A program made the position numbers and the translations under genes. From Myxococcales bacterium (lineage in GTDB: Bacteria; Myxococcota_A; Polyangia; Fen-1088), in assembly GCA_022184915.1 (NCBI GenBank), contig JAGTJU010000004.1:416057-480056 (forward strand): 64,000 bases of DNA. Direction: 5' to 3'. Below the pieces are notes generated by a model, which worked only from the letters and a program-made list of their open reading frames with translations, was not told the origin of the DNA and did not search any database. Of the stretch, positions 14,333 through 64,000 are shown piece after piece (the stretch's first letter is position 1; the number at the start of each line of letters is the position of its first letter).

Positions 14333-16303
14333 TCAGCGCTGCGACGAGGGCAAAAGCTCGTAGCGCATGTTTCGGCGGCGCGGGAGAAAGCCCGCCTCGC
14401 GCACGTAGCGTTCGATGTCCTGCGCCGAGAGCTTGAACACCGCGCCGGCTTGCGACACCACGTTTTCCTCGATCATCGCGCTGCCGAAGTCGTTGCCGCC
14501 GAAGCGCAGCGCCACCTGGCCCACCTCGGGACCCATCGTGGGCCACGAGACCTGCAAACTGGGAAAGTTGTCGAGGTAAAGCCGCGACAGCGCGAACACC
14601 CGCAAGTAACGCATGGCCGTGGTGTCGTCCTTGAGCTTGAGGCGGGTGCCTTCGGCCTGGAAGGGCCAGCAGATGTACGCGGTAAAACCGCCCGTTTCGT
14701 CCTGCAGCGCCCGCAGATGTTCGAGGTGGTTGAAGATGTGCTGCGGGGTCTCGCCAAAGCCGAACACCAACGTGCCCGTGGTGCGCAGCCCGAGCGCGTG
14801 CGCCTGGCGCATGACCTCGAGCCAGGTCTCCGTCGAGCACTTGAGCGGCGAGATGCGCTCGCGGATCTCGTCGTCGAGGATCTCGGCGCCGCCGCCCGGA
14901 ATGGAATCGAGGCCGGCGTCCACGAGCCGTTCGATCACGGCCCGCAGCGACAGGTTTTCGAGCTCGGCGATGTAACGGATCTCCTCGGGCGACAGCCCAT
15001 GGATCGCCAGAGGAAAGTTGGCCTTCATCCAGCGGAAGAGATCCTCGTAGTACGCAAGCGGTAGATCGGGGTTCAAGCCCCCCTGCAGCAGGATCTGAAC
15101 ACCGCCGAGATCGACCGTTTCCTTGAGCTTCTGCGCCAGCACGTCCTTGGGCAAGGTGTAGCCGTCGGCGCGGCCCGGTGGGCGGTAGAAGTTGCAGAAC
15201 TTGCACCGGGTCACGCACACGTTCGTGTAGTTGACGTTCCGATCGATGATGTACGTCACCACGCCATCGCCGTGCAGGGACTTGCGGCGCAGGTCGGCGG
15301 CCGCGCCGAGATCCAGCGTGGGGGCTTCGGCATAGAGCCGAAGCGCGTCCTCGTACCCCAAGCGCTGGCCCGCGGCGGCGTCCGTGAGAAGGGCATCAAT
15401 CGATTTGTTCGGGTGGTCCACGCCCGTGCGGGGCACGGGCAAAGGCGCAGCCGTGCGGACCGTGGTGATGGGGCGCTCGGGGCGGCCATCGTCGAAGAAA
15501 CGCAACGGTGGTTTGCGGGGCAAAAGGCCTGCCGCGTGAGCCCGCGTGAAAAACGCCGTGGCGCCCGAAAGTTCTTCGGCCCCGAGCTGGTAGCGGATGT
15601 TGCGGGTGAGATAGGCCTCGCAGGCCTCGGGAGAAAGATGCGAGTTTTCGGCCCAGCCGCGGGCGATCTCGGCCCGGTGTTCGAGCCCCTGACGAAGGCT
15701 CTCCTTGAGCAGCGCCACCGCTTCACCCTCCACCGCGCCCGGCCGCCCGGCCCACACGGCGTAGACGAAGGGCAGGCCCACCCAGCGCGTCCATTCGGTG
15801 CCGAGATCGTAGACGTAGGGGAAGCGCTCGGCGGCTGCGAACGCGGGGTCACCGATCATCAGTGCGCCCCGGCGGCCCTGCACGCTGTCCACCAAGGTCT
15901 CGTGTGCGGTGAGCGCGAAGCCCGGGGAGAGCCCGCGCTCGTGGGACAGCAGCTTGACCAGCGTCGCCGACGTCCGCGACGCGCTGTCGGTGCCGATGAA
16001 CTCCATCTCTTCCCATGGCACTTCGCCGACCAACAACACCGTGCGCACGGGGCCCTTGCCCGCCACCGCCACGCCCGGCACCACGCGCAGCTCACCCTCG
16101 ATGGTCGCGAGCGAGGCGGTGGGCAGCAGCGCCAGATCCACCTCGCCGTGCGCGAGCCTGTCGGCGCAGCGCGAGGGCAGATCGTAGGTGAGCTCGAAGC
16201 GTTCGCCCATCCGGCCCAGGCCCCGCTCGAGCGCGTACGTGATGGGCCGCGCGTTCAGAAACGAAACGGCGGCCAGGCGCAGCTTGCGGTCAGGCGCGCT
16301 CAT
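14333..16303 (-). CDS. MqnA (chorismate dehydratase)-like domain fused to a MqnE/MqnC-type radical-SAM enzyme
   Basis: 656-aa single ORF. N-terminal ~275 aa has the MqnA-like signature (LRLAAVSFLNARPITYAL). C-terminal ~370 aa carries the radical-SAM CxxxCxFC motif (NYTNVCVTRCKFCNF) and GGAEIL motifs of the MqnC/MqnE family. Confidence 0.7.
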   Translation of the reverse strand: MSAPDRKLRLAAVSFLNARPITYALERGLGRMGERFELTYDLPSRCADRLAHGEVDLALLPTASLATIEGELRVVPGVAVAGKGPVRTVLLVGEVPWEEMEFIGTDSASRTSATLVKLLSHERGLSPGFALTAHETLVDSVQGRRGALMIGDPAFAAAERFPYVYDLGTEWTRWVGLPFVYAVWAGRPGAVEGEAVALLKESLRQGLEHRAEIARGWAENSHLSPEACEAYLTRNIRYQLGAEELSGATAFFTRAHAAGLLPRKPPLRFFDDGRPERPITTVRTAAPLPVPRTGVDHPNKSIDALLTDAAAGQRLGYEDALRLYAEAPTLDLGAAADLRRKSLHGDGVVTYIIDRNVNYTNVCVTRCKFCNFYRPPGRADGYTLPKDVLAQKLKETVDLGGVQILLQGGLNPDLPLAYYEDLFRWMKANFPLAIHGLSPEEIRYIAELENLSLRAVIERLVDAGLDSIPGGGAEILDDEIRERISPLKCSTETWLEVMRQAHALGLRTTGTLVFGFGETPQHIFNHLEHLRALQDETGGFTAYICWPFQAEGTRLKLKDDTTAMRYLRVFALSRLYLDNFPSLQVSWPTMGPEVGQVALRFGGNDFGSAMIEENVVSQAGAVFKLSAQDIERYVREAGFLPRRRNMRYELLPSSQR

Positions 16304-17451
16304 GGCACCACCTCCAGCGCGCGGCGGCTCACGTTGCGGCGGAAGGGCTTTTGCGGGACCAGGGCGTCGCCTTCGGCGATCACGTTGTAGAGCGTGTCGC
16401 GCTCGACAGGGGTGCGCCCGGCGTTGACGATGAGGCGCACGATCTCGTCGGGGGCCAGGGTCTGCGGCGTCTCCGCACCGGCCATGTGATAGATCTTTTC
16501 CTCTTGCACGGTGCCATCGAGATCATCGGCACCGAACCAAAGCGCCGTTTGCGCCGTCTTCACCCCCAGCATCACCCAGTACGCCTTGAGGTGCGGGATG
16601 TTGTCCAGAAGCAACCGGGCCACCGCGTACGTGCGCAGGTCTTCGATGCCCGTGGGCGCAGGCAGCTTCATGAGGGCGTTGTTGTCGGGGTGGAAGGCCA
16701 GGGGGATGAAGGTCTGAAAGCCGCCTGTTTCGTCTTGCAGGGCGCGCAGCGCGAGCATGTGGTCCACACGTTCTTCCAGGGTCTCGATGTGCCCGTAGAG
16801 CATCGTGCAGTTCGATCGCATGCCCATCTGGTGGGCCGTGCGGTGTACGGCCAGCCATTCTTCGGCGTTGCACTTGTCGTCGCACACCTTCTTGCGCACC
16901 CGCGGGGCAAAGATCTCGGCGCCGCCGCCCGGCAGGGAATCGAGACCGGCGGCCCGCAGCTGCTCCAGCACCTCCTTTACGGAGAGTCCGTAGCGCTGGT
17001 GGTAGTAGTGCACTTCCACCGCCGTAAAGGCCTTGAGATGGATGTCCGGCTTGATGCGCTTGAGACCCGCGAGGAGGTCCGTGTAGTAGGAAAACGGCAG
17101 GCCCGGGTGAAGGCCATTGACGATATGGATCTCCGTCACGGGCTCGCCCACGTCCACGCGCCTTTGCAGACGGCCGAGGGCTTCTTCGAGCGAAAGGGTC
17201 TGCGCCTGGGGGCTGCCCTCCTCGAGCCGCGCGAACGAGCAGAACCGGCAGCTGGCCACACAGACGTTCGTGGCGTTGATGTGGAAGTTCCGGTTGAAGT
17301 ACGTGCGCGCGCCGTGCATCCGCTCCCGGACCTCATTGGCCAGGGCGCCGAGCTCCATCAGGTTGGCGTGATCGAAGAGCGCGACACCGTCCTCGAAGGA
17401 CAGAGGCTCGCCGTCTTTGACTTTGTCGCGAATGCGGGAAAACGTGCTCAT
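16300..17451 (-). CDS. MqnC/MqnE-type radical-SAM enzyme (menaquinone via futalosine)
   Basis: 383 aa. NATNVCVASCRFCSF Cys triad. Paralogous to the C-terminal half of 14333..16303. ATGA overlap with the upstream gene. Confidence 0.7.
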   Translation of the reverse strand: MSTFSRIRDKVKDGEPLSFEDGVALFDHANLMELGALANEVRERMHGARTYFNRNFHINATNVCVASCRFCSFARLEEGSPQAQTLSLEEALGRLQRRVDVGEPVTEIHIVNGLHPGLPFSYYTDLLAGLKRIKPDIHLKAFTAVEVHYYHQRYGLSVKEVLEQLRAAGLDSLPGGGAEIFAPRVRKKVCDDKCNAEEWLAVHRTAHQMGMRSNCTMLYGHIETLEERVDHMLALRALQDETGGFQTFIPLAFHPDNNALMKLPAPTGIEDLRTYAVARLLLDNIPHLKAYWVMLGVKTAQTALWFGADDLDGTVQEEKIYHMAGAETPQTLAPDEIVRLIVNAGRTPVERDTLYNVIAEGDALVPQKPFRRNVSRRALEVVP

Positions 17452-25526: not shown

Positions 25527-28187
25527 CTAGCGGCGCCGTCGCCGCAGCCGGAAAGCGCCCCCCAGCGCCAGCAGCACGAGAGCTCCGGCGCCCGTGGGGG
25601 CGTCGCCGCCGTGGCCAAGCGCGCAGGAACAGCCGCCCCCCTCCGTGCGCACCGTGCGGGTCACGCGGGTGTCGGGGCAGTCGCTGCGGGGGAGGCACTG
25701 CGGGATGCCATCGGCCGTGAGCGTGCACGCAAAACAGCCGTTGCTGGGGCAGGTGACCGTCTTGCAGGGATCGTCCTTGCATTGGCCTGTGAGGGGCACG
25801 CAGGCCTGCCCCGGGCATACCCTGAGAAGACAGGCGTTCGCCTGGCACTGGCCGGTGGCCGGATCGCAGACCTGACCGCTGGCGCAGGCGATGCCACTGC
25901 AGGCGTCCGCTTCACAGGAGCCCTTCACGCACCGCTGGCCTCCCGGGCAGGCCGTGGCGCAGTTGTCGATGCACTGGCCCTCCTGGCAGTACTGGTTAGC
26001 CGCGCAGGCCACGCCCGCGCAGGGATCCGCCGCGCACGCGCCGGCGAGACAGAGCTGACCCGGCTGGCAGAGGCTGGGCACCGTGCGGCAGTCGTTGCAC
26101 ACGCCGTTGACGCAGCGGGCGGGGGCCTGGCAGACCACACCCTGGCAAGGATCTTCGCAGGCGCCCGAGCCCGGGTTGCAGCGGAAGCCGGGCATGCAGG
26201 TGACGTCGCGGCACTTGGTGGAAAGGCACACCTCGACCGCGGCATCGTCCACCGAGCGCCGCCCCTCGTTGCACGCGAAGCCCGGTGGGCACGGGAACTC
26301 GCCGCTGCTGCACGGCAACTCGCACTTGGCGGGCACGAGATCGACCACGGGATCCTTCTTCACGCAGATGCGTCCGTTCGGGCAGATTATCTCACCGTCA
26401 TCGGTGAGGCCATCGCAGTCGTTGTCTTTGCCGTCGCAGGTCTCGTCCCGCGGGGGCACGCAGCCCTGGCACGAAAGCCCCAAGGCGCCCGCACACACCT
26501 GCTTGCCCTTGCGGCACTCGCCCGTGCTGAGCTGCTCGAGGGTGAAGGGTTCACAGGCGCAGTCGGCGCCGCCCAGGCCTTCATCGGTCTGGCCGTTGCA
26601 GTCGTTGTCCTTGCCGTCGCAAAGCTCGGGCATGGGGGTGTTGACCTGCACGCACACCAGCGCGCCCCCGCGGCAGGCAAACGCGCCCGCCTTGCATTCA
26701 CCCACGGCCACACCGCAGGGCTCGCCTTCCCCGGGCAGCGTCGTTTGCCCCTCGGGCGGTTCGTCAACCATGCCGTCGCAGTCGTCGTCCACGTTGTTGC
26801 AAAGCTCGGGGGTGCCGGCCACCGGAGGGGCGTCGCACACCGTGCCCAGGCCGTTCGGCGCGCACACCTTGGTGCCGGCACGGAAGCAGGCGCCCCGGCC
26901 GCCGTTGTTGCAGGCGGCGCCAAGGTCGAAGCCCTCGTCGATCTGGCCGTTGCAGTTGTTGTCTTTCCCGTCGCAGATCTCGCTTGCCGGACCCTGGCAG
27001 CCGTTGCAGGCGAGGGCGCCCGCCGTACATGCGGTGACACCCAGCCGGCACATGCCCTTGCCGTCCTGCTCGGGGGTGACGAGCCCGTTGCAGGTGCAGC
27101 TTTCGCCCGCCCCGGGCAGGGGGGCTTCGTCGACGAGGCCATCGCAGTCGTCGTCGACGCCGTTGCAGATCTCCGCGGGGGGCACGGTCTGCGCGATGAT
27201 GCCCACGAGCTCGCGCTTGATCTCGTCGCTGTTGGTGAAGTCGACGCCGATGGCCTTCGTGGTGCCGCCACTGGCGGCGATGGCATCCAGGGGGTTGCTG
27301 GCGCCCCCCAGCAGGCTTCTGTCCGTGAGGACGTAAACGGGCACCTGTGAGTTTTGGAAGAGTGTGCTGGCCTGGGTGCGCGGGTTGAAGGGGGAAAGCT
27401 CCGCTTCGTCGCACTTCTCGATGCCGTCGGTCACCAGGATCACCAGGTTCTTGCGGCACTGGCCCTTCGGGTCCACGAAGGCCGCGCCGTTTTTCCGGCG
27501 CACATAGTTGTCGTAGTAGAGTCGGGCGTAAAAGAGTGAACGGCCAAGCGGCGTGGCGAAACCCAGCTCGGGGTTGTTGCCCTTGCCCGTACCGCCGGCC
27601 CGGATCTCCGGATCCGTGATCACCCCACCCGAAGCCGCTTCGGTCAGGTTGATCCATCGCAGGAGCTCGGCCACGTTGCCGTCGGCCGGATCGTAATCGC
27701 CAGGGGCCGGTTTGCCCGTGTTGGCTTTGTTGGTCACGGGAACCACGATGGCCTCGCGGTAGGCGCTATCGAACCAGGCGCCGTATTCGGTCTGGTTGCT
27801 GTTGTGGGTAGTGAGCTGGCAGCCGACGCGGGTGCTGTTGTCGTTGAAGTAGCGGCCGCGGGGACATACGGGGCTGCTGTTCGGCGCTTCCTTTTGCGGG
27901 TAGCGCATGAGCCCGAAGTTCGCCTCATCGGTGCCCACCTGCGCAAGCGTCTCGCGGAGGGCCTGTTTGAGCAGAAAAATGCGCCTGTTGGTGCCCTGGC
28001 CCCCGCAGAGCGGAGAGCCATCGAGGCGGTTGAGGGTGTTCCACTCGTCGTTGTCCGCCATCGACCCCGACGTGTCGAAGACGATGAGGATGTTGGGCTT
28101 GAGCGCCTGTGCGTGCGCAGGGCTGGCGGTGGCCAGCGCCGCAGCGCCTGCTGCCAGGACGACCCACGAGCGTTTCACGAAAGCCAT
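25527..28187 (-). CDS. secreted VWA-domain protein with myxobacterial Cys-rich repeats and MYXO-CTERM sorting tail
   Basis: Starts MAFVKRSWVVLAAGAAALATASPAHA (signal peptide; GAGGAA Shine-Dalgarno upstream). VWA MIDAS ILIVFDTSGSM. Over 10 CxGxDxDCDGxxDE-type repeats. C-terminal GGCSCA...ALVLLALGGAFRLRRRRR. Confidence 0.75.
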   Translation of the reverse strand: MAFVKRSWVVLAAGAAALATASPAHAQALKPNILIVFDTSGSMADNDEWNTLNRLDGSPLCGGQGTNRRIFLLKQALRETLAQVGTDEANFGLMRYPQKEAPNSSPVCPRGRYFNDNSTRVGCQLTTHNSNQTEYGAWFDSAYREAIVVPVTNKANTGKPAPGDYDPADGNVAELLRWINLTEAASGGVITDPEIRAGGTGKGNNPELGFATPLGRSLFYARLYYDNYVRRKNGAAFVDPKGQCRKNLVILVTDGIEKCDEAELSPFNPRTQASTLFQNSQVPVYVLTDRSLLGGASNPLDAIAASGGTTKAIGVDFTNSDEIKRELVGIIAQTVPPAEICNGVDDDCDGLVDEAPLPGAGESCTCNGLVTPEQDGKGMCRLGVTACTAGALACNGCQGPASEICDGKDNNCNGQIDEGFDLGAACNNGGRGACFRAGTKVCAPNGLGTVCDAPPVAGTPELCNNVDDDCDGMVDEPPEGQTTLPGEGEPCGVAVGECKAGAFACRGGALVCVQVNTPMPELCDGKDNDCNGQTDEGLGGADCACEPFTLEQLSTGECRKGKQVCAGALGLSCQGCVPPRDETCDGKDNDCDGLTDDGEIICPNGRICVKKDPVVDLVPAKCELPCSSGEFPCPPGFACNEGRRSVDDAAVEVCLSTKCRDVTCMPGFRCNPGSGACEDPCQGVVCQAPARCVNGVCNDCRTVPSLCQPGQLCLAGACAADPCAGVACAANQYCQEGQCIDNCATACPGGQRCVKGSCEADACSGIACASGQVCDPATGQCQANACLLRVCPGQACVPLTGQCKDDPCKTVTCPSNGCFACTLTADGIPQCLPRSDCPDTRVTRTVRTEGGGCSCALGHGGDAPTGAGALVLLALGGAFRLRRRRR

Positions 28188-28213
28188 GGCGGGTTCCTCG
28201 AGGTTGCGAAGGG

Positions 28214-30127
28214 TCACAGCACACCGTCCTTGCAGCAGCGAAAGCCCACCGAGGGCAGCCGCACGGCGATGTCGGGGCAGGGAGCTTGTGGGCTGCACGC
28301 CTGGCCGTTCGGGCAGCTGCCGTTTTTGCATTCGGCGGGCCCGGGGGCGGGGGTGTTGCCATCGCAACGAAGCCCCGGGGCCACCCGCCGCATGGCGGTG
28401 CAGGGCTCGGACGTGCACGAGGGATCCGGCTGCAAGTAGCTGGTGTTGTTGTAGGCGCCCCCCCGCAGCTCGAACCCCAGCGGGGTGGCCGTGGGCAAGG
28501 TGGTGAGCACCCACTCCTTGAGGTTGCCGCTCATGTCGAAGAGATCGTCGGTGACGGCCGGGTCACCCTGGTCCGACAGGCACATGACCGCGTTGCCCAC
28601 GGGCAGGGGGGCCGGCGTGGCCTGGAAGTCCGCCCCGTTGCACTTGGCGCCGTCGTAGAGGTTTCCGTAGGGGAAGGCGCTGTTGCCGCCGCCGTTGCAG
28701 GCGTCCAGCCATTCCTCTTTCGTGCACAACCGCCAGCCCGCGCCGATCGTCTGGCAGGCCGCTTGCGCTTCTTCCTTGGTGACGTTGCCCCAGGGCTGTC
28801 GGCCCTTGACGCTGCAGGGACGCCTGTTCGAGACCATACCCGGTGTGGTGGTGTTGGCGTCGTGCCGCGAGGCCTCGTAGGCGAACATGGTGACGGTCCG
28901 GCCCGCAGGGCTGAGCACCACCAGCCTGTCGTCGCTGGTTTTGTCCATGGCCGAGAGCAGCTCGTCGGTTTTGCCATCGCAATCGTTGTCGAAGCCGTCG
29001 CAGGTCTCGGCCCCGGGGGCGCCTGGTGGGGTGTCGCATTCGGTGCCGGTTTTGTCCGCCTTGCAGCGCAGCCGGCCTTGCCGCACGCACTCGCCGAACA
29101 CCTTTTGCCCCTGGGCATCCGTGTCGGCCACACAGGCGGCCCCCACGCGGAAGCCTTCATCGACGAGCCCATCGCAGTCGTTGTCCAGGCCATCACAGCC
29201 CTTGGCCATGTCTTCGCCGCTTTCCTGGTAAAGCGAAGCCGGGTAGGGGCACGACCAGGTGGTCACCACCACGTTGGCCATGGCTGCGTCCTTTCCGATG
29301 ATTACGGGGCCACACACCGGCGTCACGCCGGCGCAGACGCCCATGCCCCGGCAGGTGATGGTGGGCGTGACCCCATCATCGATCAGGCCGTTGCAATCGT
29401 TGTCGACGCCGTCGCAGAGTTCAACGCCGCCGTTGGTCTTCTGGCATTCGCAGCCGGCTTTGGTGGGGTCGCTGTCGCTGAAGCCGGGCTGGCAATCGGT
29501 TTGTTTGCACACGCCCTGATCGCACCGTGCGAGGGCGAACGGGAAGCTGCACAGGCGGTTGCAGGCGCCGCAGTGCTTGAGGTCGGCGTCGAGGTCGAAG
29601 CCTTCGTCGGTTTTGCCGTCGCAGTCGTTGTCGAGGCCATCGCAGGCGGCTTCGGGTTTGTCGCCGGCCGTGTCGCGCTCCGCACCGACCAGGATGCACT
29701 CGCAGCCGTTGGTGGCCCCGTTGTCGATGTCGATGGCGCCGGTCACGCAGGAATAGCCACAGGTGCCGGCCTGGCAGGTGGTGAGCGCGTTCGGGCGGTC
29801 CTGGCACACGTTGTTGCACGAGCCACACGATTCGGTGCGGGTCAGCACCTCGGCCGCGACGTCATCGATGGTGCCGTTGCAGTCGTCGTCGATGCCGTTG
29901 CACAGCTCGGTCGTGGGCGTGCACGCGTCCATGCGGGGGGGCGCGGTGTCCAGCTTGGGTGCCGCATCGAGCTTCGGGGCGTTGGCATCGGCGGGCGTGG
30001 GCCCGGCGTCTTGCTCACCCGGCGGCGATCCGATGGTGATCGGCAGCTCACGCTCTGCGCAACCAGGGAGGCACATGAGTGTGGGGGCCATCAGGAAAAC
30101 GAGAAGAGCTCTCTTTAAGTTCGGCAT
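28214..30127 (-). CDS. lipoprotein with Cys-rich (DNDCDG) repeats and C-terminal FGE-sulfatase (SUMF1-like) domain
   Basis: Lipobox LMCLPGC. Repeated CDGxDNDCDGxxDEGF modules. The C-terminal domain resembles the formylglycine-generating-enzyme fold (NLKEWV, RGGAYNN). Confidence 0.65.
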   Translation of the reverse strand: MPNLKRALLVFLMAPTLMCLPGCAERELPITIGSPPGEQDAGPTPADANAPKLDAAPKLDTAPPRMDACTPTTELCNGIDDDCNGTIDDVAAEVLTRTESCGSCNNVCQDRPNALTTCQAGTCGYSCVTGAIDIDNGATNGCECILVGAERDTAGDKPEAACDGLDNDCDGKTDEGFDLDADLKHCGACNRLCSFPFALARCDQGVCKQTDCQPGFSDSDPTKAGCECQKTNGGVELCDGVDNDCNGLIDDGVTPTITCRGMGVCAGVTPVCGPVIIGKDAAMANVVVTTWSCPYPASLYQESGEDMAKGCDGLDNDCDGLVDEGFRVGAACVADTDAQGQKVFGECVRQGRLRCKADKTGTECDTPPGAPGAETCDGFDNDCDGKTDELLSAMDKTSDDRLVVLSPAGRTVTMFAYEASRHDANTTTPGMVSNRRPCSVKGRQPWGNVTKEEAQAACQTIGAGWRLCTKEEWLDACNGGGNSAFPYGNLYDGAKCNGADFQATPAPLPVGNAVMCLSDQGDPAVTDDLFDMSGNLKEWVLTTLPTATPLGFELRGGAYNNTSYLQPDPSCTSEPCTAMRRVAPGLRCDGNTPAPGPAECKNGSCPNGQACSPQAPCPDIAVRLPSVGFRCCKDGVL

Positions 30128-30285
30128 CGGCGAAAGGGTTCCTCATTCACACGGAGCGAAGGGGCCGCGCGCACCCGAACGGCTTGGGGCGTCTCAGCAA
30201 GGGCATCATAGGGAAACGGCCCGGAAAACCACAGAGGTTTGTGGGCAGCTCCTGCCGAGGTCCGGGGGCAGCGCGGCGACGTTCG

Positions 30286-37472: not shown

Positions 37473-38215
37473 TAGCGTCGTGTTCTTTCAGCGCTGAATG
37501 CATCCAGGTGAAGCGGAGAGTCACGCCGTGCGACGGCTTCGTCAGCATGAACTGCCACCATGAAAGCTGCGTTTGTTCTTTCGATCCGATGGCCCCGAAG
37601 GATGCGGCTACTTCCTTCTCGTTTCAAGCTGACGAAGCCTGTGCGTCCGGTGAGGTTGCTGAGCGCCTGTTTCGTCGTTGGTGTCTATCAGGAAGCGAAA
37701 AAGGAAGGTGGCCTTCACGTCAGGGGGCGGCTTCGTGGAAACTCCGAGGAGGAAGCGCTTCGGCCACATCACACGGCCATCGTGGAGGCCGCGCTTGGCG
37801 ACGGCCGGCTAAGAACCCTTGAGCAGCATGTGAAGCCGCTCGGCAAGAAGGTGCAGAGCCCCATCATCTATTGGCGTTCGGCGAAGATCCCACCTTGGAC
37901 GTTTCCCGAGACGATTCGTGACAACGCCGACCGCCGCACGCCCGCCATGGTCACCGAGGAAGTGGAGGTGCTCGTGACGGGAAGCATTTGGGCATACCGG
38001 CCGCGGGCGAAGTAGGGGGCGTGGTCCTCCTCGCGATGAGACCGCTAGACTTGACCTAATCCTTAAAGCCAATCTGCCGGTAGATCAAATCCGGACCGGC
38101 CTTTGCGAGGTAAGAACCGTGGGCGGTACAACGGTGTCATTGGAATGGCATCCACGCCGCAGCGGCCCCGAGTAGAGTCGAAGAGGTTCGCTTTGCCGAG
38201 TTCCCATCTCTTCCT

Positions 38216-40309
38216 ATGGTCACCATGCCCCCATCCCCCGCTTGGTTCTCCAGCACCCGCGCCACCTTCGTCGGCGCCGCCACTGAATCCGTGGTCGCCC
38301 AGCTCGCCTCGGGCGCCACGCGCGAAGGCTGGCTCGTAGAGCCCGAGCAGCACGACGAGTGGACCTCCAGCGTTGAAGCCCTCAAGCACGAGCTTGCGGC
38401 CGACGCCTGGCCCGCCGAGGGCCAGCAGGGTGGGGCGGCAAAGGCCGAGACCGTCGACACGCTGAGGGCGGCGTTGGCCCAAGCCGGCCTCGAGAGCTTT
38501 CGCCATGTGATTCTCGAGTACAACATGCGGCGCCGCGGTCTGCGTGTGGATTGCGTGCTGCTGGGGGAGGGCATCATCGCCGTGATCGAGTTCAAGCGCA
38601 GCCGCCCCAGCGCCGCCGATCGCGACCAGGTGATGAACTACGCTGTGAACCTGTGCGAGTTCCACGCCGAGACCCAGCGCGCGCTGGACCAAGGCGCCAT
38701 CCTGGTGCCCATCGTCGTGGCCACCCAGCAAGACACGCCGCTGCGCCTCGGCCAAGCGTTTCACGCCGCCCCGTGGAGCCGGGTGCTACAAGCGCCCCTC
38801 GAGGGCAGCGCCCGTGACCTTGCCCAAGCCTTGCGCCACGCCCTCGCGCTGCGGCCCAGTTCGGCCACCCCCGTGACCATCGACCGCGACACCTGGCTCG
38901 CTGCAAAGTTCTCGCCCTCATCAACCATCCTCGACGCCGCCATCTCGCTCTACGGCGCCCACGATGTTTCCGCCATCTCCGAACACGCCGCCCCCATCGA
39001 GGTGCTGGAGGCCTGTGCTACCGAAGCCATGGCCCAGATCGAAGACGCCCTGCAAACCGGCCAGCGGCGCATCGTGTTCGTCTCGGGCGCGCCCGGCGCA
39101 GGCAAGACCCTTGTGGGGCTCAAGCTGGCCTTCAGCGCCCAGCTTCGCGAGCAGTCTGTGTTCGTCACCGGCAACGCCCCCCTCGTCGATGTGCTTTGCC
39201 ACGCCCTGCAGGGCTCGTACAAGCGGGCCTCGCGTCGCGCTGGCATCAGCGGCTATGCCAAGGAGCAGGCCCGGCACGTGCTGGGCAACGCCACCTTCAA
39301 GATCGTCAAAGCCCACAACTACCTGGGCGACCGCGGCCGTCACCTCGACACCGCCCAAGAGCGCGTGGTCATCTTCGACGAAGCCCAGCGCACCTACGAG
39401 AAGGGCCGCACCGTGCTTCGTCAGCGCCTGGCCAACCACGAAGCCGACCTGATCCTCGAAAGCCTGGAACAATCGTTTCCTGGCGGCACCGTCGTGGTCG
39501 CCTTGCTGGGACACAACCAAGCCATCAACAGCGGCGAACGTGGCGCCGTGGCCTGGTTGGAAGCCGCCGCCCGTCGCCACTGGCAGTTCGCCATAGGCGA
39601 AGAAACTCTGGCCCTCACCGAACTGGCCTCCCACAGCCACCACGGAACCCATGCCCTTCGGCGCTCCTTGCAGCGCGGGCACCTGGCCCATTCTCTGCGC
39701 TACTACCGCAACGCCAGCGTCGAGAGGTGGGCCCACGCCGTGCTCGAAAACCAACCCACCACCGCCCGCAAGATTGCCGCCGAGCTCGATGCCCATGGCC
39801 ACACCGTGTATCTGACCCGCTCGCTGGCCCACGCCAAACGATGGGCCCAAGAACGGCGTGTGGGCGCCGAACGCGCCGGCGTCATCGCCTCGGCCCAGGG
39901 CCGGCGCCTATCCGCCGTGGGCATCCACGTGCAGTACAAGCCCGACATCTCCGACTGGATGCTCACACCCAGTGGCGACGTGCGGTCCTCGAACATGCTC
40001 GAGACCGCCCAGAACCAGTACCAGATCCAGGGGTTGGAACTGGACCACACCATCGTTTGCTGGGACCTGGACCTCCGCCGCAGCCCCCAGGGCTGGCAAG
40101 CGTTCAAGATGCAAGGCACCACCTGGAAATGCGACAAAGCCCAAGACATCGCCCGCAACGGCTACCTGGTGCTGCTGACCCGCGCCCGCAAGGGCATGAT
40201 CCTGGTTGTACCCGAAGGCGACGAGGGCGATCCCACGAGACCGCCCGGGGCGTACGGCGAGCTGGCGGCCTACCTGCGGGCTTGCGGGGCGGAGGAGGGC
40301 GGGCCATAG
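38216..40309 (+). CDS. NERD/PD-(D/E)xK nuclease-like N-domain fused to DUF2075-type SF1-helicase-like P-loop ATPase
   Basis: 697 aa. N-terminal FRHVILEYNM...RVDCVLLGEGIIAVIEFK (D...ExK). Walker A VSGAPGAGKT. Walker B VIFDEAQR. C-terminal GYLVLLTRARKGMILV (helicase motif VI-like). Confidence 0.7.
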   Translation: MVTMPPSPAWFSSTRATFVGAATESVVAQLASGATREGWLVEPEQHDEWTSSVEALKHELAADAWPAEGQQGGAAKAETVDTLRAALAQAGLESFRHVILEYNMRRRGLRVDCVLLGEGIIAVIEFKRSRPSAADRDQVMNYAVNLCEFHAETQRALDQGAILVPIVVATQQDTPLRLGQAFHAAPWSRVLQAPLEGSARDLAQALRHALALRPSSATPVTIDRDTWLAAKFSPSSTILDAAISLYGAHDVSAISEHAAPIEVLEACATEAMAQIEDALQTGQRRIVFVSGAPGAGKTLVGLKLAFSAQLREQSVFVTGNAPLVDVLCHALQGSYKRASRRAGISGYAKEQARHVLGNATFKIVKAHNYLGDRGRHLDTAQERVVIFDEAQRTYEKGRTVLRQRLANHEADLILESLEQSFPGGTVVVALLGHNQAINSGERGAVAWLEAAARRHWQFAIGEETLALTELASHSHHGTHALRRSLQRGHLAHSLRYYRNASVERWAHAVLENQPTTARKIAAELDAHGHTVYLTRSLAHAKRWAQERRVGAERAGVIASAQGRRLSAVGIHVQYKPDISDWMLTPSGDVRSSNMLETAQNQYQIQGLELDHTIVCWDLDLRRSPQGWQAFKMQGTTWKCDKAQDIARNGYLVLLTRARKGMILVVPEGDEGDPTRPPGAYGELAAYLRACGAEEGGP

Positions 40310-42903: not shown

Positions 42904-43218
42904 TTATCGGAGGAGGCAACCCTCCGGAAAACAGCTTCGGCGAATACCGGCGTGAGTGCGACCGGGATGGTTGTCGCCAGCGAAGGCGAGGTCCAGGTCG
43001 CGGGTCGCTCGATGTGGCTTGCCCGTCCAGAGCGTGAACAGTGCCGCGCCCTTCAGCACGAACCGCTGCGCGTGCCGCGACGATGCGAGGCGGAACAGCA
43101 GGCGCTCGTTCGCGTAGCGCGTGAGCACGAGCTGAAAGTCCTTGCCCCGCTCCCGGGACAAGCGCGCGAGGCGTGCGCGCACCGACGCGCCGATGTCCTT
43201 GGGTGGGCTCTTCGTCAC
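42904..43218 (-). pseudogene. AbiEii/DUF1814 nucleotidyltransferase toxin, truncated after ~75 homologous residues
   Basis: GTG start overlaps the AbiEi stop (GTGA). KDIGASVRARLARLSRERGKDFQLVLTRYANERLLFRLASS...FVLKGAALFTLW matches the AbiEii N-terminus. Then it diverges and stops. A full-length family member is ~300 aa. Confidence 0.55.
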
Positions 43219-43823
43219 GCGAGCGCCTCGAGGTACGGCCGCATGAACGAATAGATGCGATCGGCGCGGGCGGCTTCGACGAGCGCATCGATGCTGCCCT
43301 TGTGCTTTCGCAGGTAGTCCTTGAGCGCCGCGAGCGCGACCTCGAGCCCGACGTGACGGCGGAAGCGAAAGCAGTCGGCGACGGTTTTCGCGGGGGTCGT
43401 GAGCTGCACCTTTACACCGTCGATGACGCGCGTCTCGACACCATGCTCCAGGGCCTTCTCGCTCGCGCGGACGACCTCGAGCGCCGGTGCGGTGACCTTG
43501 GGCATGCGTGCGTGCCGGTCGATGAGCACCCAGACAGCGTGTGGGACCTCAGTCGTCATGCCGTGGGCCTGCAGCGCACTGAGCAGGCAGATGACCGCGT
43601 GCGGGACGCGCTTGCTCACCTCGGCAAGCGAGCTCTGCTCGGTCACCGGCGCGTCGGCGAGCCGGTAGAGCCCGCGGTCGATCTGCTCGAGCAGGCCGCG
43701 GTCGCAGAGCCGCTTGAGGTAGGCCCGCGGGATGGCGGCGGCGTCGAGGTCCCGAGCGCGCACCGGCCCCTTTCGAGCGAGCCGGAGGAGGGTCGTGGTC
43801 TTGTTCGCGGCGCCGGGTGGCAT
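43215..43823 (-). CDS. AbiEi-family antitoxin/transcriptional regulator (type IV TA)
   Basis: Start chosen at MPPGAANK. N-terminal wHTH TTLLRLARKGPVRARDLDAAAIPRAYLKRLCDRGLLEQIDRGLY plus the AbiEi C-terminal domain. An identical second copy is at 51658..52314. Confidence 0.7.
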   Translation of the reverse strand: MPPGAANKTTTLLRLARKGPVRARDLDAAAIPRAYLKRLCDRGLLEQIDRGLYRLADAPVTEQSSLAEVSKRVPHAVICLLSALQAHGMTTEVPHAVWVLIDRHARMPKVTAPALEVVRASEKALEHGVETRVIDGVKVQLTTPAKTVADCFRFRRHVGLEVALAALKDYLRKHKGSIDALVEAARADRIYSFMRPYLEALA

Positions 43824-44176
43824 GATACGGAACGTCGTTCTCGAATATCGCGGGCAGACGATTCGTATCACACCATGCCGCCGCCTTCAAGCTTTTGCCC
43901 CCGCGCCTGCCCGTAAGGCTGGAATGGGCGGTGCGGCAAGAACCGCTGGAGATCCTTCGTGACCTGAGGCTGGATAGGCGAGGATGGCGAACGATGAGAA
44001 TTGGGCGGCGATATTTGTTGGGTGCTCTGTAAGCCCGTTACGCCCAGCCTGATGGTGAGCGAGGGACCGGACGGGTAGCCTCCATGGGGACGATCTGGGC
44101 GCGGGTCGCGTAGGGTCAGGGGCGACAACTCGGCCCCGAAACGGAGCCGCGAGGCTCGACAGAGGCCCAGGCCGGC

Positions 44177-60983: not shown

Positions 60984-62096
60984 ATGCAAAAGTATCTCTG
61001 CGCCCTGCTGCTGGCTCTGGCCTCCGTCACGTGTGGCGGTGGGTCCGATGATGGCCCCTACGGCAAGAAGGTCGCCGTCGAGCCCGCGGTGTGCGCGGGC
61101 GGGTGGCAGTCCGTCCAGGTCTTGCCCCAAAGTGGGGTCGCTTCGATCTACGAGATGGCATGGCTCTCCGATCATCTCCATTACTTCCGGCCGAACACCG
61201 TCTTTCCCTTTGGAACCACGCTCGTGACGATCGCCAGCGATCGTACGATCACGTCCGTTCCTGCGATCGACGGTTACCCTTTCACGAACGATGGCCAAAA
61301 GCTGGCGACCTTCCGTGGGCTCGATGATGGCACCCGCCAGCTTTGGACGAAATCGGTCGACGCGCAGGACTGGACACTGGAAACGACGTTTGCGTTCGCG
61401 GGTGTGACGGCATCGGCATATCCCTTTCAGACTCTCCTGACGGCAGAGGCAATCTATGCCGGCGTCCCTACGGAAGACGCTTACCTGATCTCCCGATTCG
61501 ATCGCGCCACCGGCGCTGAACAGCGATTGGCGGCCGTGCGGTTCCCGGGCTTCGGGCCGGACGGCGTCTCCACCGACTACTTCGGACGAGTGGCATTGTG
61601 GACCGATTGGCTTTTCTTCGACGGGGCTTCCGGGTCAGGTACCACGTTCTCTCTTCCCCTCACGGGCGGCGAGCCCGTGTTCATGTTGCGTGCCTCCGGC
61701 AACTCGTTCGGTCCCTTGGCGATGTCGTCTTCGGGCCAGGTGCTCTTCCAGGTGCGGGACTCGGAAAGGACCAGTTTCCTCGCTGTTGCACCCGTGGGCA
61801 CGCCCGGACCACCGGTGCGATGGGGCACCGACTTGCCCAGAGAACTTTTCACCACCGCGGCCTTCGACGACGGAAAGGGCGGGTGGGTGTTGACCGGAAT
61901 CGAGCGTCTGGCGGACGGCGCCGAGCATACCACCGTATTCACGGTCGACGCGGCGGGGCGTTCACGCCGCATCGCCTGCGACCCGGAGGTGGGCCGAAGC
62001 GCATCGAAAGGTGTGCTTTCGCCGCAGGGCCTTTACCTGGCGCCTCTCCAGCTCGACCCCATCCACAACGAGACCGTCTTTGTGCCGCTGCCCTGA
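60984..62096 (+). CDS. hypothetical lipoprotein (beta-propeller-like)
   Basis: 370 aa. Lipobox LALASVTCGG. Divergent from the S8 peptidase gene across a 47-bp gap. Confidence 0.5.
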   Translation: MQKYLCALLLALASVTCGGGSDDGPYGKKVAVEPAVCAGGWQSVQVLPQSGVASIYEMAWLSDHLHYFRPNTVFPFGTTLVTIASDRTITSVPAIDGYPFTNDGQKLATFRGLDDGTRQLWTKSVDAQDWTLETTFAFAGVTASAYPFQTLLTAEAIYAGVPTEDAYLISRFDRATGAEQRLAAVRFPGFGPDGVSTDYFGRVALWTDWLFFDGASGSGTTFSLPLTGGEPVFMLRASGNSFGPLAMSSSGQVLFQVRDSERTSFLAVAPVGTPGPPVRWGTDLPRELFTTAAFDDGKGGWVLTGIERLADGAEHTTVFTVDAAGRSRRIACDPEVGRSASKGVLSPQGLYLAPLQLDPIHNETVFVPLP

Positions 62097-62580
62097 GTCT
62101 GAAGACATACCTTCCACGTTGCCGTTGGCTTTTGACCTCGACGGTGACGGCGACCACGACGTCGTGCTGGGGCACGCGCGCTCCCTCTCGGGCGTGCCGC
62201 GTGCGTTTCGCCCCACCTGGGCCGCAAAGCTCGAGGAGAGCCCCACCGTCCTGTGGCTCGAGAACCATTGAACGGTTGGTTGCCGTTGCGCTGCCGCAGG
62301 GTCCCGCAGGGGCGGACTGGACGTCGTCACGTGCGAGACGCCAGGTCCGCCAACATGGCGTCGCAACGGATTCGACGCCTGGAAGCAGACCACACGAAAC
62401 GGCCGTGTCGTAAATCTGAGGCCGGAGTCTCGGTTTTCTGAGGAGTTTAGGGGCTGAGAACGCAGGACACCCTCGTCACATCGAGGGGTTAGCGCCACCG
62501 CTCGGTGCGGCGCGAAAGTTGCTACCGTGTGCGCCTGCGCTCCCCGACACCCCGGTGATCCGCAAGCCCCAGTGTTCACC

Positions 62581-63813
62581 ATGATGACGCCCCCGCGCCG
62601 TTTGCCCATCGCGCCCCACGCTTCACCCGGAGCCCGGCATTTGCCGTTGCTGGCCGAAGCGCGGGCGCTCGATCGCGAGACGAGGCCCATCTACGCGGTC
62701 TGGGAGATCACGCTTCGCTGTGATCTGGCCTGCCGGCATTGCGGGTCGCGCGCGGGCCACGAGCGCCCCGATGAGCTCGACACCCAGGGCTGCCTGGACC
62801 TCGTGGCGCAGATGGCGGCGCTGGGCGTGATGGAGGTGACGCTCATTGGCGGTGAAGCGTACCTCCGGCCCGACTGGCTCGAGATCGTGAGCGCCGTCAG
62901 GGCCGCGGGCATGACGTGTGGCATGACCACCGGCGGCCGTAGCTTCGACGAAGCGCGCGCGCAAGCGGCCGCCAAGGCCGGGCTGCAATCGGTGAGTGTG
63001 TCGATTGATGGCCTGGAAGCCACCCATGATCGCTTGCGGGGCGTGAGCGGTTCTCACCGTGCGGCGATCGCCGCGCTTGCCCGGGTGCGCGAGGCGGGCA
63101 TGGCGGCGTCCGTGAACACCCAAATCAACCGCTTGTCCCTGCCCGAGCTTCCCCAGATCCTGGAAAGCGTGATCGCCGCAGGTGCAAAGGCCTGGCAACT
63201 TCAGCTCACGGTGGCGATGGGGCGAGGCGCTGACGATCCGGACCTCCTCCTTCAACCCTACGAGCTGCTCGCGCTGTTTCCCGTGCTCGCCGCCTGCAAG
63301 CGGCGCTGCGACGAAGCCGGTGTTCGCCTTTTCCCCGGCAACAACATCGGATACTTCGGACCTTACGAGACGGTGCTCCGCGGGGCCTACCCCAAGGGGC
63401 ACGCCGCTTCTTGTGGGGCGGGCTGTGGCACCTTGGGCATCGAAGCCAATGGCGCCATCAAGGGCTGCCCGTCGCTGCATTCCGAGCCCTGGACCGGGGG
63501 CAACATTCGCGACCACAGCCTGCGCGACATCTGGGAACGCTCGGCGCGCTTGCGCTACATCCGGGATCGGACCGTGGACGACCTCTGGGGCTTTTGCCGG
63601 ACCTGCTATTACGCCGACGATTGCCGTGCAGGTTGCACCTGGACCAGCACGAGCCTCCTCGGACGTCCCGGGAACAACCCCCTGTGCCATCACCGCGCGC
63701 TCGAGCACCAGAAGTTGGGCCAGCGAGAGCGCCTCGTTCAGATAGAGTCTGCCCCCGGTCAGCCCTTCGACCACGGCCGCTTCGAAATCATTGTGGAGAC
63801 CCTTGACCCATGA
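62581..63813 (+). CDS. radical SAM / SPASM-domain peptide-modifying enzyme
   Basis: Start at MMTPPRR. Radical-SAM CDLACRHCGS. C-terminal twitch/SPASM cysteines CGAGCG...GCPS...CRTCYYADDCRAGC. Confidence 0.7.
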   Translation: MMTPPRRLPIAPHASPGARHLPLLAEARALDRETRPIYAVWEITLRCDLACRHCGSRAGHERPDELDTQGCLDLVAQMAALGVMEVTLIGGEAYLRPDWLEIVSAVRAAGMTCGMTTGGRSFDEARAQAAAKAGLQSVSVSIDGLEATHDRLRGVSGSHRAAIAALARVREAGMAASVNTQINRLSLPELPQILESVIAAGAKAWQLQLTVAMGRGADDPDLLLQPYELLALFPVLAACKRRCDEAGVRLFPGNNIGYFGPYETVLRGAYPKGHAASCGAGCGTLGIEANGAIKGCPSLHSEPWTGGNIRDHSLRDIWERSARLRYIRDRTVDDLWGFCRTCYYADDCRAGCTWTSTSLLGRPGNNPLCHHRALEHQKLGQRERLVQIESAPGQPFDHGRFEIIVETLDP

Positions 63814-64000
63814 ACCACGTCCTCATCGCTTGCTCTTCCTGCCAACGTCACATGCGCAACACCGAAGCGCACTGTCCTTTTTGCGGCCAGATAGCGACGG
63901 TCGGCGCCCCTCGCAGCCCCGCGCCCACGAGGCGCATGAGCCGTGCCGCCCTGGTGGCGCTGGGGGCCACGCTGGCGATGGGCTCGGCCAGCTGCGACGA
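63810..64000 (+). CDS. small Cys-rich protein (zinc-ribbon-like CxxC...CxxC followed by a hydrophobic segment), 3'-partial at window edge
   Basis: ATG overlaps the radical-SAM stop (ATGA). MNHVLIACSSCQRHMRNTEAHCPFCGQ... then RRMSRAALVALGATLAMGSASC. Open to the end of the window. Confidence 0.4.
   Translation, partial: MNHVLIACSSCQRHMRNTEAHCPFCGQIATVGAPRSPAPTRRMSRAALVALGATLAMGSASCD

Follow-up and report, generated by a model that had tools for sequence, protein, structure and literature searches.

What does a radical S-adenosylmethionine (SAM) enzyme do when its gene ends within the start codon of a cysteine-rich open reading frame (ORF) that runs off the available sequence? This is the question raised by the right-hand end of a 64,000-nucleotide stretch of Myxococcales DNA (contig JAGTJU010000004.1, positions 416,057 to 480,056; "the window" below means this whole stretch). 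A first-pass annotation, made from the letters alone, had proposed a pair resembling those of ribosomally synthesised peptides that are modified post-translationally (RiPPs), or a protein-crosslinking pair, and had left undecided whether the small ORF encoded a substrate, a partner or something unrelated. We think that the two genes probably form a two-gene, binary splicease-type system (we would give this reading a probability of about 0.65), in which the enzyme would act on a Tyr-Gly (YG) motif in the tail of the protein encoded downstream, called here the partner. The argument is built on the family placement of the enzyme, the conservation of the gene pair, the modules of the partner, the enrichment of YG in its tail, and the shuffling of modules between enzymes and substrates in related lineages.

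The enzyme and its family

62584-63813, plus strand: gene for a radical-SAM/SPASM enzyme of 409 amino acids (aa), splicease-like (ORF list, Pfam, NCBIfam and public contig record).
62719-62742, plus strand: CX3CX2C radical-SAM cluster motif, CDLACRHC, with C46, C50 and C53 (columns invariant in a 52-sequence alignment of relatives).
63412-63687, plus strand: SPASM auxiliary-cluster cysteines C277/C281, C295, C338, C341, C347, C351 and C368 (sequence positions).

Three starts are possible for the enzyme (GTG 62527, ATG 62581 and ATG 62584), with the stop at 63811-63813. The last of them is the public gene call and gives the 409-aa product, which was recovered by exact-sequence look-up; look-ups with the 62581 or the 62527 start returned no match, the public record existing only for the 62584 start. 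The class named in the first-pass annotation, from a CxxxCxxC motif and a C-terminal set of SPASM cysteines, is borne out: C46, C50 and C53 form the former, the product matches the Pfam families Radical_SAM (E 1e-19) and SPASM (E 1e-8, residues 278-343) above thresholds, and its C-terminal spacing (C281-x13-C295, C338-x2-C341-x5-C347-x3-C351, then C368) fits the SPASM pattern, with C338, C341, C347 and the final C368 also lying in invariant columns of the 52-sequence alignment.

Among the NCBIfam models the best match is TIGR04103 ("nif11-class peptide radical SAM maturase 3"; 505.8 bits, E 7e-152, model positions 3-382 of 412 covered), followed by TIGR03913 ("GDL motif peptide-associated radical SAM/SPASM maturase"; 481.5 bits, E 2e-144), and the third model (E 4e-47) stands about 100 orders of magnitude behind these two. 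The models of PqqE, MftC and the sactipeptide and ranthipeptide maturases score still lower (among the last two kinds, StsB at 3e-29 and PapB at 4e-13), and no anSME, triceptide or GRRM model is among the best 25 families. Of the classes that had been listed for checking, the enzyme is then neither an anSME nor a PqqE or MftC, and no conserved sulfatase was found near it across the related loci described below. Since its scores lie under the curated cut-offs of both leading models (725 bits for TIGR04103 and 591.75 bits for TIGR03913), the enzyme, as judged from sequence, belongs to a sister clade of the two families and is a member of neither. Among 1.84 billion representatives, 638 relatives were found at E < 1e-30, and the family is large, with over 7,700 close homologues scored; the public annotation of the enzymes is "radical SAM protein" only, and that of the partners "hypothetical protein". 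Neither enzyme nor partner has a specific family model of its own in Pfam or NCBIfam, and a literature search by TIGR accessions returned no match.

The best-scoring model leads to PlpX, the prototype splicease, which belongs to a previously uncharacterised subclass of SPASM radical-SAM enzymes, has precursors of the Nif11/NHLP kind and acts at X-Tyr-Gly (XYG) motifs (PMC11002830, PMC11414181). We infer that TIGR04103 is the PlpX family, the two being equated by their matching descriptions and not by sequence alignment.

The closest solved structures by sequence are PqqE (E 9e-24) and SkfB (2e-22), at only 15-25% identity, and the Foldseek neighbours are SkfB, PqqE, SuiB, anSME and ChlB. PqqE resembles the enzyme also in that it acts on a Tyr, but there is no PqqD or RiPP recognition element (RRE) partner here. 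SPASM enzymes of similar fold do many reactions (Glu-Tyr, thioether, Lys-Trp, formylglycine and cyclophane among PqqE, SkfB, SuiB, anSME and ChlB), none of them the one that we propose. This diversity, and the position of our enzyme under both family cut-offs, speak for a first alternative, in which the same two proteins would work together by another chemistry: the Tyr of YG would be modified without excision, by cross-linking, beta-hydroxylation or epimerisation, the cross-links considered being Tyr-centred C-C or C-O bonds of the triceptide, PqqE or darobactin type. We hold this to be unlikely, although it is the alternative that we take most seriously. The triceptide, PqqE and MftC models trail the XYG-associated ones by more than 100 orders of magnitude, and the tails of the partners, discussed below, bear on the same point.

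Conservation of the gene pair

63810-63813, plus strand: ATGA, overlap of the enzyme stop with the partner start (sequence).
63810-64000, plus strand: 5' part of the partner gene, 63 codons of 165 aa, running off the window.

The overlap of the enzyme stop with the ATG of a cysteine-rich ORF at the window edge had been read correctly in the first-pass annotation. A scan of one genome per species gave 80 related loci, which with the window make 81; the 80 enzymes are 60-74% identical, and all of them come from metagenome-assembled genomes of Myxococcota (labelled Polyangia, Polyangiaceae, Sandaracinaceae, Labilithrix, Kofleriaceae and others). With a profile of the partner's N-terminal region, applied within 6 kb of the enzyme, at least one partner copy was detected in 72 of the 81 loci, and two to five copies in 28; six of the nine loci that lack a partner are truncated contigs. 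The partner usually lies downstream of the enzyme, with the 4-nt ATGA overlap in 26 of the 64 loci that have a downstream partner and with gaps of -35 to +358 nt, mostly below 100 nt, in the others. Three loci (L068, L077 and L078) carry three to five partner copies upstream of the enzyme, and in two (L065 and L079) the partner gene is convergent with the enzyme gene. The earlier remark that a possible substrate here follows its enzyme, where one would usually expect it to precede, thus holds for the window and for most loci, but the order is not fixed.

The adjacency of enzyme and partner is not due to chance, because the same pairing recurs in so large a majority of the loci, and a linkage that is kept despite changes of order, orientation and copy number is what would be expected of a maturase and its precursors. 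The association recurs across myxobacteria. It also runs counter to the refuting outcome named at first pass, an anaerobic sulfatase maturase with an unrelated membrane protein downstream. A second alternative nevertheless has to be weighed, namely that the partner is linked to the enzyme without being its substrate: it could be a membrane-anchored accessory or regulatory protein that tethers the enzyme through its zinc ribbon, or an envelope protein whose PxYGxPP repeat is structural, the enzyme then acting on something encoded elsewhere. We consider this improbable. Apart from the partner, the 80 related loci show no conserved neighbour and no conserved third gene, and the number of partner copies, one to five, is like that of RiPP precursors.

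Several genes of the window were considered as parts of the system and rejected: an S8 peptidase, a 370-aa secreted protein, an 849-aa protein, sigma factors, and an amidohydrolase and TonB cluster, none of which is conserved in the related loci. The suggestion that small ORFs might lie upstream, at 62100-62580, did not hold either, as no positionally conserved ORF was found in 62000-62600 across the related loci. The frame at 62011-62271 (plus strand; ...LPLAFDLDGDGDHDVVLGH...PTVLWLENH) has the look of a lone remnant of an FG-GAP/VCBS-type repeat; it is local and not conserved in related loci. One further feature separates the enzyme gene from the 370-aa gene upstream of it:

62416-62433, plus strand: terminator-like hairpin followed by TTTTCT (hairpin scan).

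The scan of the region gave two such sites where shuffled sequence would lead one to expect 1.5, and the hairpin is weakly suggestive of a separate two-gene transcription unit.

Anatomy of the partner

63831-63884, plus strand: zinc-ribbon motif C8-x2-C11-x10-C22-x2-C25, CSSCQRHMRNTEAHCPFC (pattern invariant in 62 partners).
63930-63995, plus strand: basic RRMSRAA motif, hydrophobic stretch and lipobox-like Cys62 (partner alignment, lipoprotein pattern).
L001 11695-11703, outside the window (window-equivalent 64278-64286): candidate splice site L157-Y158-G159, in LPLYGAPP.

In the window translation the partner begins with MNHVLIACSSCQRHMRNTEAHCPFCGQ, then RRMSRAALVALGATLAMGSASC, and the hydrophobic stretch and the run-off past the window end that had been described are both seen in the sequence. 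The extension past position 64000 that had been recommended was obtained with contig L001 (Logan SRR17687159_84, 67.9 kb), which has 0 mismatches to the window over 11,417 nt and completes the partner to 165 aa (L001 11227-11724, equivalent to window positions 63810-64307); the genes that lie beyond it are convergent and unrelated. The full protein consists, in this order, of the ribbon (C8, C11, C22 and C25), a short linker, the basic RRMSR, the hydrophobic stretch and Cys62; behind these come an acidic patch and a Gly-rich region of low complexity (about 85 residues), with NVLLPLYGAPPNAP at the C-terminus. Its tail has a single YG site, the C-terminal LPLYGAPP.

The partner has no family match in Pfam or NCBIfam at E up to 10, including to a Nif11 or nitrile-hydratase-like leader, nor does it match PF08898 (DUF1843) in Pfam. 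A word-indexed homologue search gave 15 unnamed matches and was swamped by Gly-rich candidates. The idea that the partner might be an anti-sigma factor was dropped, as there is neither an anti-sigma domain match nor a conserved sigma factor nearby.

The family is best described from the 62 partners that could be aligned. The description of the ORF as zinc-ribbon-like was apt, the CxxC-x10-CxxC spacing being invariant in all of them within the pattern C..C.RH.R..E..CPFC; after a variable linker comes R-[LM]-[SG]-R-A-A, conserved at more than 90%, and then a hydrophobic stretch that ends in [AGS]-C. This stretch is uncharged, with a median of 15 residues and a mean hydropathy of 1.55 before the lipobox-like Cys. 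A lipobox was defined as an uncharged hydrophobic stretch followed by [LIVMFWSTAG]2-[LIVMFYSTAGCQ]-[AGS]-C; the core of the PROSITE lipoprotein pattern precedes the Cys in 55 of the 62 partners, and the window's own partner (...LAMGSAS-C62) is among those that conform to the definition. Because a ribbon extension of about 40 aa precedes it, the lipobox-like Cys stands at residues 58-76 instead of the usual 15-35, and the basic n-region (RRMSR) is internal. With basic charges before the hydrophobic stretch and acidic ones after it, the predicted topology is N-in, C-out. The window's partner has a Met at position 43, where most orthologues have Leu, and this M43 opens a signal-like segment (M43-SRAALVALGATLAMGSAS-C62); were translation to begin at this internal Met, the ribbon would be missing and the protein would open with a canonical lipoprotein signal peptide of 20 residues.

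Thioethers or other Cys cross-links had been thought of at first pass, and a sactipeptide- or ranthipeptide-type maturase that would install them on the partner N-terminus is indeed a third alternative. SPASM enzymes often make thioethers, four Cys lie within 18 residues at the partner N-terminus, and there are the weak matches to StsB and PapB mentioned above. The same four Cys are, however, held in the fixed CxxC-x10-CxxC spacing of a zinc ribbon, and this ribbon is found fused to the enzymes themselves in relatives; the fifth is the lipobox-like Cys, and the tails beyond it are nearly free of Cys (6 of 5,787 residues), no conserved donor Cys having been found in the core. As the models of the thioether families also score far below the XYG-associated ones, we regard the Cys cross-link reading as very improbable, and an N-terminal target as not supported.

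The YG motif of the tails

The tails of the partners are rich in Gly, Ala, Pro, Asp and Ser and nearly without Cys, Trp and Lys. Those of the 53 complete partners contain 166 Tyr, and 157 of these have Gly as the next residue, where 39 would be expected from composition (binomial P ~1e-85); the context is YGx[PA] in 143 of the YG sites, and the tail consensus reads G-G-[VAI]-[VA]-[PA]-[LAVP]-Y-G-[AG]-P-P-[PD]-D. There are one to five sites per partner, the last of them at a median of 10 residues from the C-terminus. The validated core of PlpA2 is PIRPLYGLPI (PMC10533398), and the YG sites of the partners share with it the P-L-Y-G-x-P context. Together with the linkage, these tails support the earlier notion of a RiPP-like pair, in the form of a protein-modifying enzyme next to its likely substrate. 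That the closest characterised enzymes recognise YG also argues against a partner that is only an accessory or structural protein, although the single YG of the window's own partner and the predicted extracytoplasmic position of the tail can be cited in favour of that reading.

The tails are equally relevant to the nature of the reaction. A near-invariant Gly at +1 is what spliceases require. Position +2, where three-residue cyclophanes have their acceptor, varies: in 28 of 145 sites it is Gly, which has no C-beta; no conserved Glu, Lys or Trp that could serve as a cross-linking partner is present. All this speaks against modification of the Tyr without excision, which can in turn appeal to the fact that cyclophane-forming enzymes are also known with Gly-rich repeat substrates (PMC11002830). 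We therefore continue with the splicease reading, on the grounds of the Gly at +1, the variable +2 residue and the weak scores of the cyclophane, PqqE and thioether models.

Fusions and a mobile ribbon

The neighbouring clades carry the motif as well. One relative, P0140, is 50% identical to the window enzyme and is a true member of TIGR03913 (771 bits); it is followed (on L082) by two DUF1843 genes with repeated [VAP]LYGV[VP]IQDA...GDL units, and the "GDL motif peptide" therefore carries XYG too. The best TIGR04103 scorer found, P0146 (550 bits), is preceded by a 61-aa ORF that ends in ARPLYGVWV.

Many relatives at 34-42% identity (P0201, P0211, P0216, P0220, P0243, P0262, P0265 and others) are single polypeptides: the enzyme is continued by a basic and hydrophobic segment that carries a lipobox-like Cys, and the acidic tail behind it contains as many as ten copies of xYG[IVF]P. 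The YG motif here stands in cis with the enzyme, which argues against a partner that is not a substrate. AlphaFold2 models of two such fusions (P0220 and P0201) show a confident enzyme domain and a tail that is predicted to be disordered (predicted local distance difference test, pLDDT, about 40) except at the YG repeats: in P0220, residues 441-460 with the DAYGIPDV repeats at Y440 and Y455 reach pLDDT 70 and 59 and would form beta-bridges, and in P0201 residues 530-540 (VPIYGMPEP) reach 69. That only the YG repeats are ordered in these tails again favours a substrate, and it agrees with the published placement by AlphaFold of XYG into splicease active sites (PMC11414181). Five fusions (P0216, P0237, P0249, P0256 and P0284) have Cys-rich tails with repeated CCxCDYG[VI]xPPxCC units, and the position of YG between Cys pairs hints at an extra disulfide or metal-bound scaffold around the splice site.

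The ribbon too is found on either side of the pair. TIGR03913-like enzymes carry at their C-terminus a CxxC-x10-C[PH][HF]C ribbon with the spacing of the partner ribbon (CRGCQRHVRADTKVCPFC in P0219, to be compared with that of the window's partner), and in P0139, an enzyme of the same cluster as the window enzyme, the ribbon and the segment GRSGRAAAFLAAAS (the RAA helix) are fused to the N-terminus. In a test set of 777 sequences the partner-ribbon profile matches such enzyme-fused ribbons at E 1e-4 to 1e-10. This could be turned into an argument for the tethering reading, the ribbon belonging to the enzyme itself in these relatives; to us, the fact that it is fused in some lineages and separate in others suggests that the ribbon, perhaps with the RAA helix, may bind the enzyme. 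An activating helix of the leader or of PlpY is known, as is an engineered fusion of RhaX with its leader (PMC11414181), and by analogy the ribbon could be the functional counterpart of PlpY or of the RhaA leader helix. P0139 itself lies in a different gene cluster (L083 1020-5641), together with another radical-SAM/SPASM gene, an APH-type kinase and a further gene of 315 aa, and no YG substrate was found in the part of contig L083 that was examined.

Proposed mechanism

In the model that we favour, the cytoplasmic enzyme would bind the ribbon or the helix of the nascent or unfolded partner, the zinc ribbon, possibly with the conserved RxxRAA helix, serving as an enzyme-docking or activating "leader". 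It would then act on X-Tyr-Gly, here L157-Y158-G159, and, by analogy with PlpX, RasX and RcsX, excise a tyramine equivalent (C8H9NO), leaving an alpha-keto-beta-leucine ketoamide. The basic, hydrophobic, lipobox-like segment would next export the modified Gly-rich tail across the inner membrane. The tail is probably a lipoprotein, and processing by Lgt/LspA at Cys62 would take off the ribbon together with the anchor, thereby serving as the "leader peptidase"; a lipid-tethered Gly-rich stalk would finally display an electrophilic ketoamide warhead in the cell envelope. Spliceotide ketoamides inhibit Ser and Cys proteases, with sub-micromolar to micromolar half-maximal inhibitory concentrations (PMC11626197), and for this reason protease inhibition would, by analogy, be the most likely use of an envelope-tethered ketoamide. 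The complete picture, that of a hybrid between a RiPP precursor and a lipoprotein precursor, with the ribbon as a transferable docking leader, Lgt/LspA as leader peptidase and an envelope-tethered ketoamide protein as product, is one that we put forward as a tentative possibility, less likely than not.

Several points weigh against the splicease reading, or against parts of it, and should be stated together. The enzyme scores under the curated cut-offs of both named families and is only about 50% identical to the nearest members of TIGR04103 and TIGR03913; the step from TIGR04103 to PlpX relies on matching descriptions and not on a comparison of sequences; and, the clade having been placed by sequence, another reaction on the same YG motif is possible. 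Three loci with full flanks have no partner within 6 kb of the enzyme, and there is just a single YG in the window's own partner. It is also unusual for a lipobox to lie as far in as residue 62 or so, after a folded zinc ribbon, and its cleavage is only predicted. The predicted topology sets the YG tail outside the cytoplasm and the enzyme inside it, and modification would therefore have to come before export. Finally, the AlphaFold2 signal at the YG repeats is a bump in model confidence without coordinates.

Comparison with known systems

A splicease with an XYG substrate is a known kind of system. The type I spliceotide systems PlpXY/PlpA and PcpXY/PcpA are cyanobacterial tyramine spliceases (Morinaka et al. 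2018; PMC11002830, PMC11414181, PMC10533398). The present pair resembles them in its radical-SAM/SPASM enzyme, whose best match is the Nif11-class TIGR04103, in the X-Tyr-Gly placed in a Pro-rich context (PLYGLP in PlpA2, [PA][LV]YG[AGL]P here), and in the possibility of several precursor genes per enzyme. It differs from them in its host, a member of the Myxococcota, and in an enzyme that reaches 506 bits where the cut-off is 725; no PlpY-like RRE third gene is conserved among the 80 related loci, which is consistent with a binary system, and the Nif11/NHLP leader is replaced by a ribbon, a signal-anchor/lipobox segment and a long low-complexity tail.

Binary systems without PlpY exist by the hundreds, a helix of the substrate leader taking the PlpY site on the enzyme (PMC11414181), and RhaX, RasX and RcsX of Rheinheimera are such binary (type II) spliceases (PMC11626197, PMC11414181). 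Like these, our system has two components without a Y protein, and the N-terminal element of the substrate is proposed to dock and activate; their products are ketoamide protease inhibitors, and the same product class is proposed here. Their substrates are short leader-core peptides with an alpha-helical leader, whereas the docking element proposed here is a ribbon, with or without the RAA helix, and the "core" is a 100-aa tail that is predicted to be exported (the systems were compared by description and not by sequence).

The TIGR03913/DUF1843 (PF08898) systems are close in other respects, as they supply the second-best model, an enzyme of about 50% identity (P0140), LYGV partners and a homologous CxxC-x10-CxxC ribbon. 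In those systems, however, it is the enzyme C-terminus, and not the substrate, that bears the ribbon, the partners (helical DUF1843 proteins) lack a membrane anchor, and the window enzyme stays under the 591.75 bits of the family. The natural fusions (P0201, P0220 and others) show the same order of anchor, lipobox-like Cys, acidic linker and xYG[IVF]P, but in one polypeptide without a ribbon and with an enzyme that is 34-42% identical to ours.

In the literature that we searched, the survey of Scott et al. 2022 (Chem 8:2659) lying outside it, we encountered no zinc-ribbon leader, no export segment like that of a lipoprotein, no low-complexity core of protein size and no such shuffling of modules. 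That survey reportedly predicts 939 splicease systems in 189 genera from YG frequency near SPASM enzymes, and the present clade may already be listed there.

According to reviews, a native spliceotide has never been isolated and the biological role of spliceotides is unknown (PMC9811515, PMC8868522). The partners described here carry their own address label, the signal-anchor/lipobox segment, which predicts the display of a ketoamide in the cell envelope of Polyangia; if true, this would give a first clue to the destination and the use of a native spliceotide. The movement of the ribbon between substrate and enzyme looks like a natural version of the engineered splicease-leader fusion, and it points to a compact docking module that might be reused for the site-specific installation of beta-amino acids or ketoamides in proteins. 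If the hybrid reading were true, such a system would appear to be a lineage-wide feature of Polyangia, and related lineages would have fused enzyme and substrate into one membrane-spanning polypeptide.

Other features of the window

Some observations from elsewhere in the window are worth recording. Two near-identical ORFs with an AbiEi_4 antitoxin domain (43215-43886 and 51658-52329, both minus strand) are accompanied by a 300-nt direct repeat (43164-43463 and 51607-51906; 96% identical, copies 8,443 nt apart), and they may be a duplicated AbiE-type module that brackets an inserted segment. Near the AbiEi genes, a 731-aa protein with Schlafen group 3 helicase, ResIII and AAA_16 domains (38114-40309, plus strand) could be part of a defence island. 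A 729-aa ORF (14333-16522, minus strand) joins a VitK2_biosynth (MqnA-like) domain to radical-SAM and CofH_C (MqnC-like) domains, and would be a fusion of two steps of the futalosine pathway to menaquinone. Finally, two large ORFs (25527-28562 and 28214-30142, both minus strand) have MopE-type Cu-binding motifs, and the second also has a domain like that of the formylglycine-generating enzyme (FGE-sulfatase); the two frames overlap as listed, and their gene boundaries are provisional.

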